Positions 3,185 to 34,339 of a DNA stretch of 64,000 nt are shown in pieces (within the stretch, counting starts at the first letter, position 1; each line of letters opens with the position of its first letter). The DNA lies in sequence record OR539219.1, one strand, 5' to 3'. Origin of the DNA: Escherichia phage vB-Eco-KMB39. Under the pieces are notes generated by a model. The model saw only the letters and a program-made list of their open reading frames with translations, had not been told where the DNA came from and did no database searches. The translations under genes were made by a program, and so were the position numbers.

Positions 3185-3865
3185 TTATTTTAATGTTACG
3201 AAAGAAGAGTTGCGTGTTTCACGAATTAAAACTGATCCGTCACGGTTAATGTAGTAAATTAAGCTAAATAAAGTTTGGTGTGCCGACGCGTGTTCAAAAC
3301 TAGTTGGGTGAGATTTCCAATCCGGAGTTTCAGCGATCCATTGATAAATCCACCAAGGAACCGTGCAAAATCCTGGATTTTTTCCAATCAGCTGAAGATT
3401 CGGACTAAAGTTTTCCGGAAGAGTAAATACAGACGGCTTTTCAGATTCAATAATCTCAGCTACAGCCTGTTCGAATTTTTCTTCAACAAAAGGAGTATCT
3501 TCAATCAAAACGTCAGTATTTTCGGGAATTTTATCCGTTTCTACTACTTCAATTTTAATGTCAGATTTAACCGGAGAATCAATCAGAAGTGCTGCTTCTG
3601 GATTGACTTCTTCATCGTCATATTTTAACCCCTCTGCGGCATCAGCAGCATTGATTAAGTCTTTAATAGATAACCCATCAGTCTCTGGCATAGGTTCACT
3701 AGCGAGCTTCTGGAGGGCTTCTTCAATATCAATAACGATATTATCAAAAGATTTATTCTTTTTGACCTTTATACCAAACTGTTCAGCATATTCAGCTAAT
3801 TTAGCTTTAGCTTCTTTATTATCATCAAGAGCCTTCAGCTCTGCAATATAATCTTTATCTATCAT
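3185..3865 (-). CDS. inh: Inh, inhibitor of prohead protease gp21
   Basis: 226 aa acidic ORF directly upstream of hoc, same length and position as T4 inh. Confidence 0.8.
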   Translation of the reverse strand: MIDKDYIAELKALDDNKEAKAKLAEYAEQFGIKVKKNKSFDNIVIDIEEALQKLASEPMPETDGLSIKDLINAADAAEGLKYDDEEVNPEAALLIDSPVKSDIKIEVVETDKIPENTDVLIEDTPFVEEKFEQAVAEIIESEKPSVFTLPENFSPNLQLIGKNPGFCTVPWWIYQWIAETPDWKSHPTSFEHASAHQTLFSLIYYINRDGSVLIRETRNSSFVTLK

Positions 3866-3878
3866 AATATTTCCTCAG

Positions 3879-3886
3879 TATAAATA
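3879..3886 (+). promoter_or_regulatory. T4-type late promoter (TATAAATA) for segD/uvsW
   Basis: Exact TATAAATA about 30 nt upstream of the segD ATG. Confidence 0.6.
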
Positions 3887-3914
3887 TAGATATATTTATT
3901 ACTCGGAAAATAGT

Positions 3915-4532
3915 ATGTACCACTTTGTATATGAAACAACAAATCTAATAAACGGTAAAAAGTATATAGGAAAACACTCTACTGATGACTTGAATGATGG
4001 TTACCTTGGTTCCGGTAAGGCAATTCAGCAGGCTATAAAGAAATATGGTGAAAACAATTTCTCTAGAACAATACTAAAAGAGTTTAAAACTTCCGAAGAA
4101 GCGTACATGTATGAAGAAGAAATTATAACTCCTGAAATAATAAAAAGCAAAAATTATTATAATATGAAACCTGGTGGAATTGGTGGAATTGTTATGACTA
4201 CAGAGGTTATAGCAAAGATGAAAGAATCTTCCGCTAAGAGATTTGAAAACTCACCGGGCACGGTATTAGGTACAACTTGTTACACCAATGGAACTAAAAA
4301 TATTTTTATTAAACCTGGAGAACTTGTTCCAGAAGGATTTGTAAAAGGGATGGTTCATCCTAATAGAAAGTCCAGAAAAGGATGTAAAGTCAAACCGACT
4401 ACCACAGGAACTTTTTGGGTCAATAATGGCGCAATAAATAAATTAATACAACCAGACGGTATTATTCCCGACGGATTTATTAAAGGTCGTCTCATGAAAA
4501 GAGATTCTAAAGGCAAATTTAGTAAGGCATAA
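3915..4532 (+). CDS. segD: GIY-YIG homing endonuclease SegD
   Basis: 205 aa; N-terminal GIY-YIG motif (VYETTNLINGKKYIGKH); located between inh and uvsW as T4 segD. Confidence 0.82.
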   Translation: MYHFVYETTNLINGKKYIGKHSTDDLNDGYLGSGKAIQQAIKKYGENNFSRTILKEFKTSEEAYMYEEEIITPEIIKSKNYYNMKPGGIGGIVMTTEVIAKMKESSAKRFENSPGTVLGTTCYTNGTKNIFIKPGELVPEGFVKGMVHPNRKSRKGCKVKPTTTGTFWVNNGAINKLIQPDGIIPDGFIKGRLMKRDSKGKFSKA

Positions 4533-4534
4533 TT

Positions 4535-6043
4535 ATGGATATTAAAGTACATTTTCACGACTTCAGTCATGTACGCATCGATTGTGAAGAGAGCACGTTC
4601 CACGAATTAAGAGATTTCTTTTCGTTTGAGGCAGATGGATATAGGTTTAATCCTCGCTTCAGATATGGCAACTGGGATGGACGAATCCGTCTTTTAGATT
4701 ATAATCGTCTTCTTCCGTTCGGCTTAGTCGGGCAAATTAAAAAGTTCTGCGATAACTTTGGCTATAAAGCCTGGATTGACCCTCAAATTAATGAAAAAGA
4801 AGAATTATCAAGAAAAGATTTTGATGAATGGCTTTCTAAATTAGAAATCTATTCAGGAAATAAAAGAATTGAACCACACTGGTATCAAAAAGATGCAGTG
4901 TTCGAAGGATTAGTTAATCGTCGCAGAATTCTTAATCTTCCAACATCCGCAGGTAAATCTTTAATTCAAGCTTTGCTTGCACGTTATTATTTGGAAAATT
5001 ATGAAGGTAAAATTCTTATCATTGTTCCAACAACTGCTCTGACAACTCAGATGGCTGATGACTTTGTTGACTATCGTTTATTCAGTCATGCAATGATAAA
5101 GAAAATCGGCGGCGGAGCATCAAAAGATGATAAATATAAAAATGATGCACCAGTCGTCGTTGGTACATGGCAAACTGTAGTTAAACAACCGAAAGAATGG
5201 TTCTCACAGTTTGGAATGATGATGAATGATGAATGTCATCTTGCTACAGGAAAAAGTATTTCATCTATCATATCAGGATTAAATAACTGTATGTTTAAAT
5301 TTGGTCTATCAGGTTCATTACGTGATGGCAAAGCCAATATCATGCAGTATGTTGGAATGTTTGGTGAAATATTTAAACCAGTAACGACTTCTAAATTAAT
5401 GGAAGATGGACAAGTAACTGAGCTAAAAATTAATAGTATTTTTCTTCGCTATCCCGATGAGTTCACTACTAAATTAAAGGGAAAAACTTACCAAGAAGAA
5501 ATAAAAATTATTACTGGACTCAGTAAAAGAAATAAATGGATTGCTAAATTAGCTATTAAACTTGCACAAAAAGATGAAAACGCTTTTGTCATGTTTAAGC
5601 ATGTATCACATGGTAAAGCTATTTTCGATTTAATTAAAAATGAATACGATAAAGTTTATTACGTATCAGGGGAAGTTGATACCGAAACACGCAACGTAAT
5701 GAAAACCCTAGCTGAAAACGGTAAAGGAATAATTATAGTAGCTAGTTATGGTGTATTTTCTACTGGTATTTCAGTTAAAAATCTGCATCACGTTGTTTTA
5801 GCGCACGGTGTTAAATCAAAAATCATTGTATTACAAACAATCGGTCGTGTATTACGTAAGCATGGTTCTAAGACAATAGCAACAGTCTGGGATCTTATAG
5901 ATGACGCGGGCGTAGTTTCTAAATCAAAAACATCTTCTAAAAAATACTCGCATTTAAACTATCTTTTAAAACATGGACTTGATCGTATTCAGCGTTATGC
6001 TGATGAAAAGTTTAATTATGTGATGAAAGAGGTTAAACTTTGA
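4535..6043 (+). CDS. uvsW: UvsW RNA-DNA and DNA helicase
   Basis: 502 aa; SF2 helicase motifs (Walker A region PTSAGKS, DECH box MMMNDECHLA); sequence matches recalled T4 UvsW. Confidence 0.92.
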   Translation: MDIKVHFHDFSHVRIDCEESTFHELRDFFSFEADGYRFNPRFRYGNWDGRIRLLDYNRLLPFGLVGQIKKFCDNFGYKAWIDPQINEKEELSRKDFDEWLSKLEIYSGNKRIEPHWYQKDAVFEGLVNRRRILNLPTSAGKSLIQALLARYYLENYEGKILIIVPTTALTTQMADDFVDYRLFSHAMIKKIGGGASKDDKYKNDAPVVVGTWQTVVKQPKEWFSQFGMMMNDECHLATGKSISSIISGLNNCMFKFGLSGSLRDGKANIMQYVGMFGEIFKPVTTSKLMEDGQVTELKINSIFLRYPDEFTTKLKGKTYQEEIKIITGLSKRNKWIAKLAIKLAQKDENAFVMFKHVSHGKAIFDLIKNEYDKVYYVSGEVDTETRNVMKTLAENGKGIIIVASYGVFSTGISVKNLHHVVLAHGVKSKIIVLQTIGRVLRKHGSKTIATVWDLIDDAGVVSKSKTSSKKYSHLNYLLKHGLDRIQRYADEKFNYVMKEVKL

Positions 6044-6732
6044 ATTATAAATTAATATATGATAATTTAATTAATAGAGCCCAGAATCGGGCTCGCCTTA
6101 ATGGATACACTGAAACACATCATATAATTCCTAGATGTATGGGTGGTACAAATGATAAGTGTAATTTAGTAGAACTAACGGCTGAAGAACATTTTATAGC
6201 CCATAAACTTTTAGCTAAAATTCATCCAAACCATTACGGTATAATTAAAGCTGTTATATGTATGGGGATGAATTCAAATACTCATGAAAGACACGTCAAT
6301 AAATCTTACGCATGGGAACGTCGTAAAATGGCAGAACTTCAATCCGGCGAAGGTAATCCATTTTACGGAAAACACCATACGGAAGAACATAAACAATATA
6401 TGTCAAAACTCATGAAAAGTCGTCCAATTACATGGGGAAATAAAATTAGTAAAACTAAAAGAATGAACCCAACGAAATGGACTGAAGAAGCTAAAAGATT
6501 ACATTCAATCAATCAATCGGGTAAAAATAACGGCATGTATGGAAGGAAACATTCCGCTAAATCTATTCAGAAAATTAAAGATAACATGCCAGATAATTCA
6601 GGAGCTAATAACCCAGCTGCTAAACCTATAGAAGTAAATGGTGTTAAGTATAAATGTATGAAAGATGCTTCTAAAGCTACTGGATTATCAATGTACAAAC
6701 TAAGAATACTTAGAAAAACAGTTAATTTATAA
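6040..6732 (+). CDS. Free-standing HNH homing endonuclease (Mob family) inserted after uvsW; TTG start overlapping uvsW stop
   Basis: 230 aa; N-terminus MNYKLIYDNLINRAQ...TETHHIIPRCMGGTNDKCNLVELTAEEHFIAHKLL closely parallels MobE at 33608-34339; repeated NUMOD3-like GKHHTEEHK/GRKHSAKS motifs; only in-frame start is TTG at 6040 preceded by AAAGAGG. Confidence 0.8.
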   Translation: MNYKLIYDNLINRAQNRARLNGYTETHHIIPRCMGGTNDKCNLVELTAEEHFIAHKLLAKIHPNHYGIIKAVICMGMNSNTHERHVNKSYAWERRKMAELQSGEGNPFYGKHHTEEHKQYMSKLMKSRPITWGNKISKTKRMNPTKWTEEAKRLHSINQSGKNNGMYGRKHSAKSIQKIKDNMPDNSGANNPAAKPIEVNGVKYKCMKDASKATGLSMYKLRILRKTVNL

Positions 6733-6744
6733 GGGCTTCGGCCC
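6733..6744 (+). terminator. Hairpin after HNH gene
   Basis: GGGCTTCGGCCC (UUCG loop) then TTTGG; weak T-run. Confidence 0.4.
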
Positions 6745-6757
6745 TTTGGAGAAAAAG

Positions 6758-6988
6758 ATGTTACTAGAATTTAAACAATTTCTTTATGAAGCTTCTATTG
6801 ATGAATTTATGGGTAAAATTGCCTCTTGTCAAACATTAGAAGGTTTAGAAGAACTTGAAGCTTATTATAAGAAAAGAGTTAAAGAAACTGAATTAAAAGA
6901 TACTGATGACATCTCTGTGAGAGATGCTTTGGCAGGAAAAAGAGCTGAATTAGAAGATTCAGATGATGAAGTAGAAGAAAGCTTTTAA
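6758..6988 (+). CDS. uvsW.1: UvsW.1 small acidic protein
   Basis: 76 aa from ATG at 6758 (MLLEFKQFLYEASIDEF...); matches recalled T4 UvsW.1; ORF-track start at 6746 is a TTG. Confidence 0.8.
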   Translation: MLLEFKQFLYEASIDEFMGKIASCQTLEGLEELEAYYKKRVKETELKDTDDISVRDALAGKRAELEDSDDEVEESF

Positions 6989-6997
6989 ATTAAAAAA

Positions 6998-7020
6998 GGC
7001 CCAACCAAAAAGGAAGGGCC
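6998..7020. terminator. Possible hairpin between convergent uvsW.1 and uvsY.-2
   Basis: GGCCC...GGGCC inverted repeat with large A-rich loop; weak. Confidence 0.3.
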
Positions 7021-7043
7021 AAAACTATAGACTAAAGGTCACA

Positions 7044-7211
7044 CTATAGCAAAAGTTGTGTTTCATTTAATTGTTCTTCCGAACTTTCTGAAACTGGTAG
7101 TTCTTTAATGTAATTATAACAAGGCCCAGGATGTACAGGACCTTTGTCTGTTTCAACAACCAATGCAGAATCGATTGGAGTTTTACAGACAACACAAATC
7201 TTATCTGACAT
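7044..7211 (-). CDS. Small Cys-rich protein (position of T4 uvsY.-2), below ORF-track length cutoff
   Basis: Hand-translated 55 aa ORF MSDKICVVCKTPIDSALVVETDKGPVHPGPCYNYIKEL...; CxxC...C pattern. Confidence 0.55.
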   Translation of the reverse strand: MSDKICVVCKTPIDSALVVETDKGPVHPGPCYNYIKELPVSESSEEQLNETQLLL

Positions 7212-7239
7212 GATTGTCTCCTCTAAATTATATATCTAT

Positions 7240-7464
7240 TTATATAACTCTCATATGCATATCAATACCCATATCTTTAGAATAAAAATATTCATCAAGA
7301 TATCCAGCAAATTTTCCTTTAATATAAAGGACATCTTCACCACACGGGTGGTCGGCCAGGATACGAATATCCTGACGCTTAAGATTATACTTTTTCATTA
7401 AGAATTGAATCTCAGTTTCAAATTCTTCTTCATAATTAAAAGCATCATCAATGCTATATCTCAT
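7240..7464 (-). CDS. Hypothetical protein (position of T4 uvsY.-1)
   Basis: 74 aa ORF immediately downstream of uvsY. Confidence 0.6.
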   Translation of the reverse strand: MRYSIDDAFNYEEEFETEIQFLMKKYNLKRQDIRILADHPCGEDVLYIKGKFAGYLDEYFYSKDMGIDMHMRVI

Positions 7465-7877
7465 TATTTTCCAGCCTCAAATGCTCGCATGTCTTGAATG
7501 TGCTTAATAGCAAATCCACGTGATTTAATAGCATCAAGAGCTCCGCTACAGAAATCTAATAAAATCCCCCAATACTGTAACGAGGTATCAACCTTTAAAA
7601 CATCCTTATCAGCTGATAGAACTGTCTTCATTTCTGATTTCTCGTAACGATCCATACTAAATTCATCACCATCTCCTCGTCCCGAGTAGTAGTCTAATTT
7701 AGCTTTAAGAGCAACTTTCTTTTGCGCGTCAATTCTAAGCATTTCCTTTTTAATACTTGAATGCTTATTAAGCCATTTACTATATAACATCACATTATTA
7801 GCTGCTTCATACTGTAATTTAGTCGAATCTATAAACACATCTTTCTTCAATTCTTCTTGAAGATCTTCTAATCTCAT
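7464..7877 (-). CDS. uvsY: UvsY recombination mediator
   Basis: 137 aa; MRLEDLQEELKKDVFIDSTKLQYEAANNV... matches recalled T4 UvsY. Confidence 0.92.
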   Translation of the reverse strand: MRLEDLQEELKKDVFIDSTKLQYEAANNVMLYSKWLNKHSSIKKEMLRIDAQKKVALKAKLDYYSGRGDGDEFSMDRYEKSEMKTVLSADKDVLKVDTSLQYWGILLDFCSGALDAIKSRGFAIKHIQDMRAFEAGK

Positions 7878-32429: not shown

Positions 32430-33608
32430 TTAAAAGTATTTTTTAAAACTCATCATAACTTTATCATCAACATCATTATCAATCTGTGCAACAAGATAAG
32501 ATGACAGTTCTACTTCTTGCGGCGCGGATTGAACATTATCAGAATTAAGGTATTCACGAATCCAAGGATATGGATGTTTAACCGGAGCATCGGTAATTGG
32601 GCATGGAAGACCACACTGTTTCATACGAGATACAGTTAAGTAATCAATAAAGCTCCACATGCTATTTGTATTTAATCCAGGAACATCGCCATCTTTAAAT
32701 AAATGAACTGCCCAATCTTTTTCTTGGCGGTTAACTTCCATGAAAATATCAACTGCTTCTTGTTCACACTCTTTGGCAATTTTAACCCATTCATCACCAT
32801 CAGTGCCAAGTTGAAGTTGACGAATAATATACTGGGTGCCTTTAAGGTGGAGTTGTTCGTCTCGAGCAATGAATTTCATAATCTTCGCATTACCTTCCAT
32901 GATTTCCATATTTTTATGGAAGTTGAAAGTACATGCAAAGGATACATAAAAACGAATAGCTTCCAGGGCATTGATAACATGAAGGCAGAGATAAAGCGAC
33001 TTCATCAATGCATATTTACATTCTTCCACATGCATAAGACTATTTGAATATGCATCTAAATCATATTCATTTTCGGAAAAACATTTAAAAATTTCTTTTG
33101 CATTTTCCCATTCGCGCGTCTTAACCAGAACATCATCATAATAACGACCAATAGATTCAGCACGTTTCATGATAGCTTTATCTAATACAATCTCATCAAA
33201 TACCTTTGACGGATCAGTATAAAGATTTCGCATAATATGAGTGTATGAACGACTGTGAATAGTTTCACTAAAAGTCCATGTAGCAACCCATGTATCAAGA
33301 CTTGGGTCTGAAATTAACGACATAAGTACAGCAGACGGTGCACGACCCTGAATGCTATCTAGAAGTGATTGATACTTCAGGTTATTAGTAAAAATATCTT
33401 GCTGATATTGAGGAAGCTTGTTAAATTGCGCAGCATCCATCATTAAGTTTACTTCTTCAGGACGCCAGAAAAATGACAACTGCTTTTCGGTTAAATCTTC
33501 AAAAACTTTATGACGTTGAATATCGTAACGCGCAATACCAAGACCTGAACCGAAGAACATAGGTTCTTTTAAAACATCAACTGGATTTGTATTAAAAACT
33601 GTAGACAT
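32430..33608 (-). CDS. nrdB: Ribonucleotide reductase small subunit, intronless
   Basis: 392 aa from ATG at 33608 (MSTVFNTNPVD...); di-iron ligand motifs; single uninterrupted ORF. Confidence 0.92.
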   Translation of the reverse strand: MSTVFNTNPVDVLKEPMFFGSGLGIARYDIQRHKVFEDLTEKQLSFFWRPEEVNLMMDAAQFNKLPQYQQDIFTNNLKYQSLLDSIQGRAPSAVLMSLISDPSLDTWVATWTFSETIHSRSYTHIMRNLYTDPSKVFDEIVLDKAIMKRAESIGRYYDDVLVKTREWENAKEIFKCFSENEYDLDAYSNSLMHVEECKYALMKSLYLCLHVINALEAIRFYVSFACTFNFHKNMEIMEGNAKIMKFIARDEQLHLKGTQYIIRQLQLGTDGDEWVKIAKECEQEAVDIFMEVNRQEKDWAVHLFKDGDVPGLNTNSMWSFIDYLTVSRMKQCGLPCPITDAPVKHPYPWIREYLNSDNVQSAPQEVELSSYLVAQIDNDVDDKVMMSFKKYF

Positions 33609-34339
33609 TAATTTTTCCTCTTTAAAATTCTGCCGCGTTTCCAACCTGGCGGTATAATATCATCTTTACCTATAAGCGTGCATTCACTTCCATTATTAAT
33701 CCATTTCTTACCGCGGATTCCTTTATAATCTCTTGGTTGTATTTTGTCAAACTTTGCATCAAGTTGATATGCCCATCGAAATCCATAGGCATATTGAAAT
33801 TTACCCTCAGCACAATATTTGATATTTGACCCGTTTCCATTAACTGACCTGGACGCTGCGGCAATAGAGTGAAAGGTTTCTATGAAATCCCCATCTAATG
33901 AGAATTTATGTATTTCGATAGATGGGCATGCATACCTATTCACGTTTGATACATGTTGTTTAGTTTCGTTTTTATGATGCTTGCCTAACATTCCTCTAGG
34001 ATGAGGATTATTTTTCCAATATTTCTTAAAGAAATCAGAATTAGCTTTAGCAAATAATTTTCTGTGCAAGCTATACAATCTGTTATTAATTCTATTACCA
34101 GCTTTATCTGTTGCCATTAACGTTAACGCAGAGGCAAGACCAAAATGGCCTTCATTTATCTTGCATAGTAATAGATGCGCTATAAAATGTTCTCTAGCTG
34201 TTAATTCAACTAAATTTTCTTTATCATCAGAACCTCCCATGCATTTAGGGACTATATGATGTGTCTCTTTATACTCGGATAAATGTTCCCGAGCCTGAGC
34301 TCGGGAAATTAGGTCATTATAGATTTTTTGATAATTCAT
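33608..34339 (-). CDS. mobE: HNH homing endonuclease MobE
   Basis: 243 aa; HNH motif region ETHHIVPKCMGGSDDKENLVELTAREHFIAH; sits between nrdA and nrdB as T4 mobE; stop overlaps nrdB start (TAATG). Confidence 0.82.
   Translation of the reverse strand: MNYQKIYNDLISRAQAREHLSEYKETHHIVPKCMGGSDDKENLVELTAREHFIAHLLLCKINEGHFGLASALTLMATDKAGNRINNRLYSLHRKLFAKANSDFFKKYWKNNPHPRGMLGKHHKNETKQHVSNVNRYACPSIEIHKFSLDGDFIETFHSIAAASRSVNGNGSNIKYCAEGKFQYAYGFRWAYQLDAKFDKIQPRDYKGIRGKKWINNGSECTLIGKDDIIPPGWKRGRILKRKN

Follow-up and report, generated by a model that had tools for sequence, protein, structure and literature searches.

In some T-even phages a gene is lodged right where the uvsW helicase gene ends; what is it? 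In the 64,000-nucleotide stretch of Escherichia phage vB-Eco-KMB39 that we analysed (sequence record OR539219.1; hereafter the window), an open reading frame (ORF) of 230 amino acids (aa) occupies positions 6040-6732 on the plus strand, between uvsW and uvsW.1. An earlier, sequence-only reading had proposed a homing endonuclease at this place, and the frame is indeed present in the list of ORFs. Its domains, its substitution pattern and a structure model lead us to read it as a free-standing HNH homing-endonuclease gene of the T-even phages, and we consider it likely that this gene is functional and that its product acts at the end of uvsW. The window is a segment of a Tequatrovirus (T-even) genome; over its first 25 kb the closest phage is T6, with 96.4% identity.

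An HNH head joined to an I-TevI-type tail

The protein is placed in the HNH superfamily by a profile match, by invariant residues and by a modelled core. PHROG 655, a family labelled 'homing endonuclease', matches residues 1-217 (E=3.9e-60), and the profile of the protein's own family, comprising 59 homologues, matches the HNH motif of McrA (6ghc; E=2.2e-4), where it reads Y-T-E-x-H-H-I-I-P-x-C-M-G-G-x-x-D-x-x-N-L-V-x-L-T-x-x-E-H. The predicted nuclease core spans aa 23-61 (6106-6222, +) and holds the catalytic-type residues H27/H28 (6118-6123), N42 (6163-6165), H51 (6190-6192) and H55 (6202-6204), all on the plus strand. Across the 59 homologues, H28, N42, H51 and H55 are invariant, and the HNH histidines and asparagine, whose loss would have spoken against the proposed enzyme, are thus retained. 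In the AlphaFold2 model (mean predicted local distance difference test score, pLDDT, of 88.6), two strands (25-28 and 43-46) and a helix (48-61) form a beta-beta-alpha core, from which an extended helical region leads to a terminal helix-turn-helix.

The remainder of the protein appears to be a DNA-binding module of the NUMOD3 and I-TevI type. NUMOD3 (PF07460) matches in two stretches with E=7.6e-14, its 51.8 bits lying above the cut-off (20.4); together with the alignment to 1i3j, the crystal structure of the I-TevI DNA-binding domain, this outlines a linker with NUMOD3 repeats at aa 94-122 and about 157-181 (6319-6582, +). The following aa 193-227 (6616-6720, +) are predicted to fold as an I-TevI-type helix-turn-helix DNA-binding domain. 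Here 1i3j is matched by the single sequence with E=0.0059 and by the profile, over its C-terminal 80 positions, with E=3.7e-8; the same structure is the best Foldseek match of the model (probability 0.99), and Pfam adds a faint match to the I-TevI DNA-binding domain. The HNH core and NUMOD3-like repeats claimed earlier were therefore well founded. Taken as modelled, the protein joins a Mob-type HNH head to an I-TevI-type DNA-binding tail, making it a modular, elongated putative DNA binder with two NUMOD3 minor-groove helices.

Insertion into the last codons of uvsW

In phages without the gene (empty sites), uvsW ends ...TAC GTA ATG AAA ACA GTT AAT TTA TAA and is followed by the hairpin GGGCTTCGGCCC. 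In the window, uvsW (4535-6043, +; 502 aa in the ORF list, annotated as uvsW or DNA helicase in T6, PST and T4) ends ...TAT GTG ATG AAA GAG GTT AAA CTT TGA, and it is the endonuclease ORF that ends ...AGA AAA ACA GTT AAT TTA TAA, followed by GGGCTTCGGCCC. The final 18 nt of this ORF (6715-6732, +; AAAACAGTTAATTTATAA, read as K T V N L *) are the original terminal codons and stop of uvsW, now supplying the endonuclease with its C-terminus and stop. The empty-site phages T4, LH2, OES_C-2, KIT06 and AR1 have the identical uvsW 3′ end, and the original frame is kept. The net insert measures 689 bp and lies within the last codons of uvsW, with base-precise borders, the right one at 6715-6732. The sequence-only reading thus had the junction right, but the gene is not simply wedged between uvsW and uvsW.1: it sits inside the end of uvsW.

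The consequences for the two neighbours differ. UvsW, its last four codons rewritten, now terminates in KEVKL* in place of KTVNL* (T498E, N500K). The recoded Lys-Glu codons (AAA GAG G) provide the Shine-Dalgarno sequence of the endonuclease gene, at a position where empty sites read AAAACAG. On the other side, the signals downstream of the insert are left untouched for uvsW.1, because the endonuclease ORF ends in the original uvsW codons and stop. The native hairpin GGGC-TTCG-GCCC (6733-6744, +), which in empty-site phages stands directly 3′ of the uvsW stop, is unchanged, and uvsW.1 (6758-6988, +; 76 aa; Pfam UvsW-1, E=1.7e-30) has a ribosome-binding signal of its own, GGAG at 6748-6751.

Where does translation of the endonuclease begin? 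Its gene is co-oriented with uvsW, and the TTG at 6040-6042 overlaps the uvsW TGA at 6041-6043 in a TTGA motif (6040-6043, +), 7 nt downstream of the Shine-Dalgarno sequence AAAGAGG (6026-6032, +). One codon 5′ of the TTG the frame is shut by TAA at 6034-6036, and since the first in-frame ATG, at codon 34, lies past the His-His pair, TTG is the only start that yields the whole HNH domain. Both the Shine-Dalgarno sequence and the TTG are kept in 12/12 Tequatrovirus copies compared, and an AAAGAGG-type sequence is also kept in the Dhakavirus carriers PSD2002 and Bp7. Orthologues align at the same Met/Leu-Asn-Tyr codon, with ATG in metagenomic contigs and in Rgz1 and with TTG in PSD2002 and SP18. 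Because the ATG-starting orthologues begin at the same codon, we take the TTG at 6040 to be the real start, as had been proposed. The W143, ESh30 and SP18 records place the start at the internal ATG of codon 34, which costs the protein its catalytic His-His.

An AU-rich 11-bp stem (AAAGUUUAAUU / GGUUAAACUUU; 6008-6041, +; -8.7 kcal/mol, within a 111-nt region with z = -3.0) can pair part of the Shine-Dalgarno sequence as well as the opening bases of the TTG. We dropped it as a regulatory hairpin, the stem being absent from the orthologues of three other lineages and showing no covariation. Rfam, searched at E<=1, revealed neither a group I intron nor any other RNA family at 3500-7600, the sole match being a microRNA at chance level (E=0.61, far under its gathering score). 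With no intron or RNA family around it, the gene is free-standing, in agreement with the earlier claim.

The same anatomy is found in other phages. In Escherichia phage PSD2002, the endonuclease ends in ATGAAACAGGTGGATTTATGA, which is how uvsW ends in JS98, an empty Dhakavirus, and in Shigella phage SP18 the insert is flanked by a 17-nt perfect direct repeat, ATTAAACAGGTGGAAAT (about 890-1600 of the SP18 locus). In PSD2002, the endonuclease stop also overlaps the start of uvsW.1 (ATGA), and uvsW.1 may there be translationally coupled to the endonuclease. The idea that an ancestral insertion split a once-fused UvsW-UvsW.1 protein found no support: in a word-seeded search, 75/75 UvsW.1 homologues stand alone, at 52-96 aa (mostly about 75), with no helicase fusion. 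The T4 reference record NC_000866 still shows uvsW as a fused frame of 587 aa, which stems from old sequence discrepancies. A footprint of precise loss, with the recoded tail joined to the GGGCTTCGGCCC hairpin, had 0 matches in IMG/VR, a collection with very few T-even genomes in which exact junctions number just 2 for carriers and 2 for empty sites, so that this negative says nothing about how frequent such losses are.

A recoded tract linked to the gene

A pointer to the target comes from 19 Tequatrovirus loci, 12 carriers and 7 empty, aligned over 3.2 kb. Of the 257 polymorphic sites, nine show perfect association with the gene, every one of them at 5956-6022 within the final ~85 nt of uvsW. 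Eight are synonymous third-position changes; one of the recoded segments is 6017-6022, TACGTA in empty sites and TATGTG in the window. To the left, the association fades within about 150 bp, with 10 sites at 5800-5955 showing a frequency difference between carriers and empty loci of at least 0.7. Such a difference is seen at no aligned site right of the insert, and uvsW.1 has no fixed one. Over the recoded tract, the seven empty sites do not differ from one another. Correspondingly, the recoded uvsW 3′ tail (5956-6043, +) always travels with the endonuclease gene: a 147-nt tail (5893-6039) is at least 95% identical in exactly 48 records, equal to the number of carriers, and about 90% identical or less in all others.

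As a carrier has to be immune to its own enzyme, and as the tract and the insert are the only fixed differences in 3.2 kb, the target probably lies across the 3′ end of uvsW and the junction. The simplest reading of these patterns is a recognition or cleavage site in just this place, and we infer that the recoded tract at 5956-6043 is an immunity or co-conversion tract lying over it. The nine linked substitutions thereby support, indirectly, the earlier expectation of a target near the uvsW/uvsW.1 junction. Further upstream, at 5893-5945, lies a strongly variable segment close to the C-terminus of UvsW (VVSKSKTSSKKYS in the window, VKPKSANTKKKYV in T4; about 70% nucleotide identity). It is also present in the empty-site phages LH2 and OES_C and is therefore an ordinary uvsW allele, outside the endonuclease cassette.

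Distribution, selection and age

The same ORF stands at the same site in 48 phage records with 96-100% nucleotide identity, among them T6 (AP018814 EcT6_00183; NC_054907), Yersinia phage PST, vB_EcoM-G28, G8, ACG-C40, UFV-AREG1 and HY03, and in most of these records it bears the annotation 'homing endonuclease'. T4 does not have it: alignment of the junction shows an empty site there. A query with the empty uvsW|uvsW.1 junction retrieved about 450 records at >=95% identity, so that carriers make up ~1/10 of the Tequatrovirus records. Such a patchy distribution, with precise presence or absence, bears out the view of the gene as a mobile element.

Beyond this genus, orthologues with 55-70% identity occupy the same junction, each with a 4-nt overlap with the uvsW stop, in metagenomic T4-like contigs, in PSD2002 (which groups with Dhakavirus), in SP18 (Gaprivervirus) and in Morganella phage Rgz1. 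In Dhakavirus Bp7, and also in UGJNEcP4, the junction is taken by a different HNH endonuclease of 261 aa (YP_007004261; 902-1684 of the Bp7 locus). With this second HNH enzyme, the uvsW|uvsW.1 junction is a recurrent endonuclease site.

Is the gene more than a passing guest? Pairwise comparison of 11 intact Tequatrovirus copies gave a synonymous difference (pS) of up to 0.15 and a nonsynonymous difference (pN) of <=0.011, hence a pN/pS of about 0.05, which holds over the whole ORF including codons 1-33. The copy in BF15 (1601-2289 of the BF15 locus) has suffered a 4-nt deletion that shifts the frame and brings premature stops from codon 196; judged by these lesions, it is decaying. Taken together, the low pN/pS, the high pS and the BF15 frameshift argue for a gene under protein-level selection that has long been in the group and now and then decays. 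On this pattern of substitution, we regard the gene as functional. The proposal of a recent acquisition, on the other hand, does not survive: synonymous differences reach 15%, and other genera carry the 55-70% identical orthologues at this very site.

Comparison with known endonucleases

T4 MobE, which nicks nrdB of phages lacking mobE, was the relative named by the sequence-only reading. The likeness exists, with 46% identity over the N-terminal ~130 aa (46-51% over about 105-130 aa of the Mob-type HNH domain), but it is no closer than that to MobB, MobC and MobD, the four T4 proteins sharing 43-57% identity with our protein over the N-terminal ~70-130 residues. The C-terminal half has no significant similarity to the T4 Mob proteins (the best being MobB, E=0.002), and their loci differ. 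Like mobE, the gene is free-standing and co-oriented with the gene upstream, its start overlaps the upstream stop (UUGA here, UAAUGA in mobE), and its 5′ coding region contains a GC-rich hairpin at the homologous position.

Here this hairpin is GAGCCC-AGAATC-GGGCTC at 6077-6094 (+; codons 13-18, RAQNRAR), and no U-run follows it on the plus strand; its mobE counterpart is CCCGAGC-TCAG-GCTCGGG at 34286-34307 (minus strand). A weak terminator has been reported in the mobE 5′ coding region (PMC2988022), and the mobE hairpin is probably this element. It is also known that the mobE start overlaps the upstream stop and that MobA and MobE nick DNA (PMC2988022).

The differences from MobE are as marked. 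MobE resides between nrdA and nrdB, and the window holds a separate copy of it at 33608-34339; it had been placed there correctly, but it is encoded on the minus strand. MobE starts at ATG and our gene at TTG, and the C-terminal halves are unrelated, with NUMOD1 in MobE and NUMOD3 plus an I-TevI-type helix-turn-helix here. Orthology to MobE or MobD is ruled out, similarity being limited to the N-terminal 71-134 aa and MobD adjoining nrdC.11 just as MobE adjoins nrdA/nrdB. The PST, ACG-C40 and W143 records name the ORF mobD or MobE; these labels are nearest-hit names, not statements of orthology.

With MobB there is a local relationship of another kind. The two proteins are just 44% identical overall, and 65 nt of the HNH core (6106-6170; ORF nt 67-131) are 92-93% identical to T4 mobB at the DNA level, including about 42 straight identical bases. 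This stretch has the look of a patch left by gene conversion between paralogous endonuclease genes.

With I-TevI the protein shares its other end. The NUMOD3 helix and the helix-turn-helix are homologous to PDB 1i3j/1t2t (I-TevI residues about 170-245), with 32% identity over 69 aa of the I-TevI C-terminus. The catalytic domains differ, GIY-YIG in I-TevI and HNH here, and so does the setting, I-TevI being encoded in the td intron whereas our gene is free-standing; a zinc finger as in I-TevI was not detected in the endonuclease. I-HmuI, the HNH nicking homing endonuclease of Bacillus phage SPO1 (PDB 1u3e), is likewise intron-encoded, and it showed no detectable sequence similarity in our searches and a weak structural match. 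The Bp7 enzyme, finally, resembles ours in its junction, its TTG/TGA overlap, its AAAGAGG-type recoded uvsW tail and its N-terminal 60 aa (46% identical). It differs in having a MobD-like C-terminal region (29% to T4 MobD over its full length) in place of the NUMOD3/I-TevI-like one, and its end lacks captured uvsW codons.

A model for homing at the uvsW end, and its alternatives

How might the gene spread? In the model we favour, the endonuclease would be transcribed together with uvsW, without a strong promoter of its own, and ribosomes finishing uvsW would initiate at the weak TTG by way of the TTGA overlap and of a Shine-Dalgarno sequence held inside the recoded tail. Expression would be low, since a weak start would be served by ribosomes ending uvsW, and the protein would probably be scarce and made late in infection. 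In a mixed infection it would recognise the conserved uvsW 3′ end around TTTAATTACGTAATGAAAACAGTTAATTTATAA in phages without the gene and nick or cut it there, and recombinational repair from the carrier genome would copy the 689-bp insert along with the recoded uvsW tail. The carrier would be protected twice over, by an insert that splits the site and by about 15 mostly synonymous substitutions that rewrite its left half, and uvsW would stay functional by virtue of the replacement terminal codons that the element supplies. Each of these proposed steps is documented for other mob/seg genes in a review of T4 mobile elements (PMC2988022): free-standing endonuclease genes of T4 frequently lack a promoter, overlap the ORF upstream of them and are inherited by 'intronless homing' with co-conversion.

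Several points weigh against an enzyme of this type acting at the uvsW end. The Pfam HNH model (PF01844) stayed under its cut-off, at 16.2 against 21.4 bits, and a literature search gave no cleavage, nicking or inheritance experiment on the protein. The linked tract could be a mere hitch-hiking donor flank. Free-standing T4 endonucleases, moreover, often cut hundreds to thousands of bp away from their own gene (PMC2988022).

The alternative that survives best builds on these last two points: the enzyme would cut at a distance, elsewhere in uvsW or beyond the 3.2 kb, as SegG does, and the tail would be co-converted donor flank. In its favour, the upstream allele at 5893-5945 is partly linked to the gene, as are the 10 sites at 5800-5955. 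Carriers would nevertheless need immunity at the distant site, and the fixed differences in 3.2 kb are 5956-6043 and the insert only. In addition, the change from TAC-GTA to TAT-GTN, in a motif that is part of the palindrome TTACGTAA, recurs beside the gene in carriers of four lineages, the empty T4, LH2, AR1 and JS98 all retaining TAC-GTA, although this comparison covers only four empty sequences from two genera. I-TevI-type DNA-binding domains, too, bind near the insertion site in their own system. We regard cutting at a distance as improbable, albeit worth keeping in view.

A less probable alternative still is that the protein has been domesticated and is kept for a benefit to the phage, be it marker exclusion of competitors, I-TevI-like autorepression or repair together with UvsW or UvsW.1. 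The strong purifying selection and the long persistence at one site in several genera would fit, and so would the overlap of the Dhakavirus gene stop with the uvsW.1 start, which would tie the translation of uvsW.1 to the gene. Against such a role, about 90% of close relatives do without the gene, one copy is decaying, and presence or absence combined with a recoded flank linked to the gene is what homing classically leaves behind. Marker exclusion is a by-product of homing anyway (PMC2988022).

We think it very unlikely that the ORF has become a remnant without activity, as T4 I-TevIII and MobA have, surviving without cutting or with a TTG too poor to be translated: TTG starts are rare, several records begin at the codon-34 ATG without the catalytic His-His, and part of the Shine-Dalgarno sequence and start codon can be drawn into a local hairpin, yet selection extends across codons 1-33, the catalytic residues are invariant, orthologues have ATG at the same codon, the Shine-Dalgarno spacing of 7 nt is ideal, and the hairpin is not kept in orthologues.

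Homing at the uvsW end is hence the reading we retain. Beyond it, a broader picture can be drawn that we offer as speculation and would not ourselves bet on. The element would be a cassette grafted into host reading frames and would make up a sixth 'Mob' lineage, so far unnamed and missing from T4; in Dhakavirus, tying uvsW.1 translation to an open endonuclease ORF would act as a retention device; and the conserved uvsW end (TTACGTAA...) would be a cross-genus homing site shared by two HNH enzymes that differ in their DNA-binding domains.

Neighbouring features

On its other side, too, uvsW borders on an endonuclease gene. The GIY-YIG homing endonuclease gene segE (Pfam SegE_GIY-YIG, 3e-9) lies at 3915-4532 (+), just 5′ of uvsW, so that an endonuclease gene stands on either side of uvsW, the two being unrelated. 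The presence of one is independent of the other: BF15, W143 and RPN226 have the HNH gene without segE, and T4, AR1 and LH2 have segE without the HNH gene.

The only perfect late-promoter motif on the plus strand of 3800-6800, TATAAATA, is located at 3879, 5′ of segE. No late promoter of its own could be assigned to the endonuclease gene, near which there are only 7/8 matches, on the plus strand: TATAAATT at 6046-6053, just within the start of the ORF, and TATAAATG at 6649-6656. The latter, 109 nt 5′ of the uvsW.1 ATG, might drive uvsW.1.

In three carriers, MK327944 (G2540-3), OP870145 (F26) and MW883059 (SYGD1), a 1.8-kb region matches as two pieces with about 98 extra bases, which hints at another small insertion close to the locus.

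Implications

How much of this is new? The ORF is already annotated in T6 and dozens of its relatives and belongs to an existing PHROG family, and as such it is an ordinary gene for T-even phages. The literature searched, with most subscription journals outside its coverage, contained no paper on an endonuclease gene at uvsW/uvsW.1. We see mild novelty in the combination of domains, in the graft into the uvsW frame and in the recurrence of the site across genera. No concept is changed, given that free-standing HNH endonucleases, overlapping starts and recoded targets are all established in T-even phages.

What the analysis does offer is more practical. Annotation can be corrected, the 'MobE' and 'mobD' labels being wrong and the internal-ATG starts deleting the catalytic histidines. 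The candidate target has been narrowed to about 85 bp at the uvsW end, and natural pairs of carrier and empty phage exist in T6 versus T4 or T2. T4 has 15 named endonucleases (PMC2988022); outside this set, the gene described here adds an unnamed homing endonuclease to the T-even model system.

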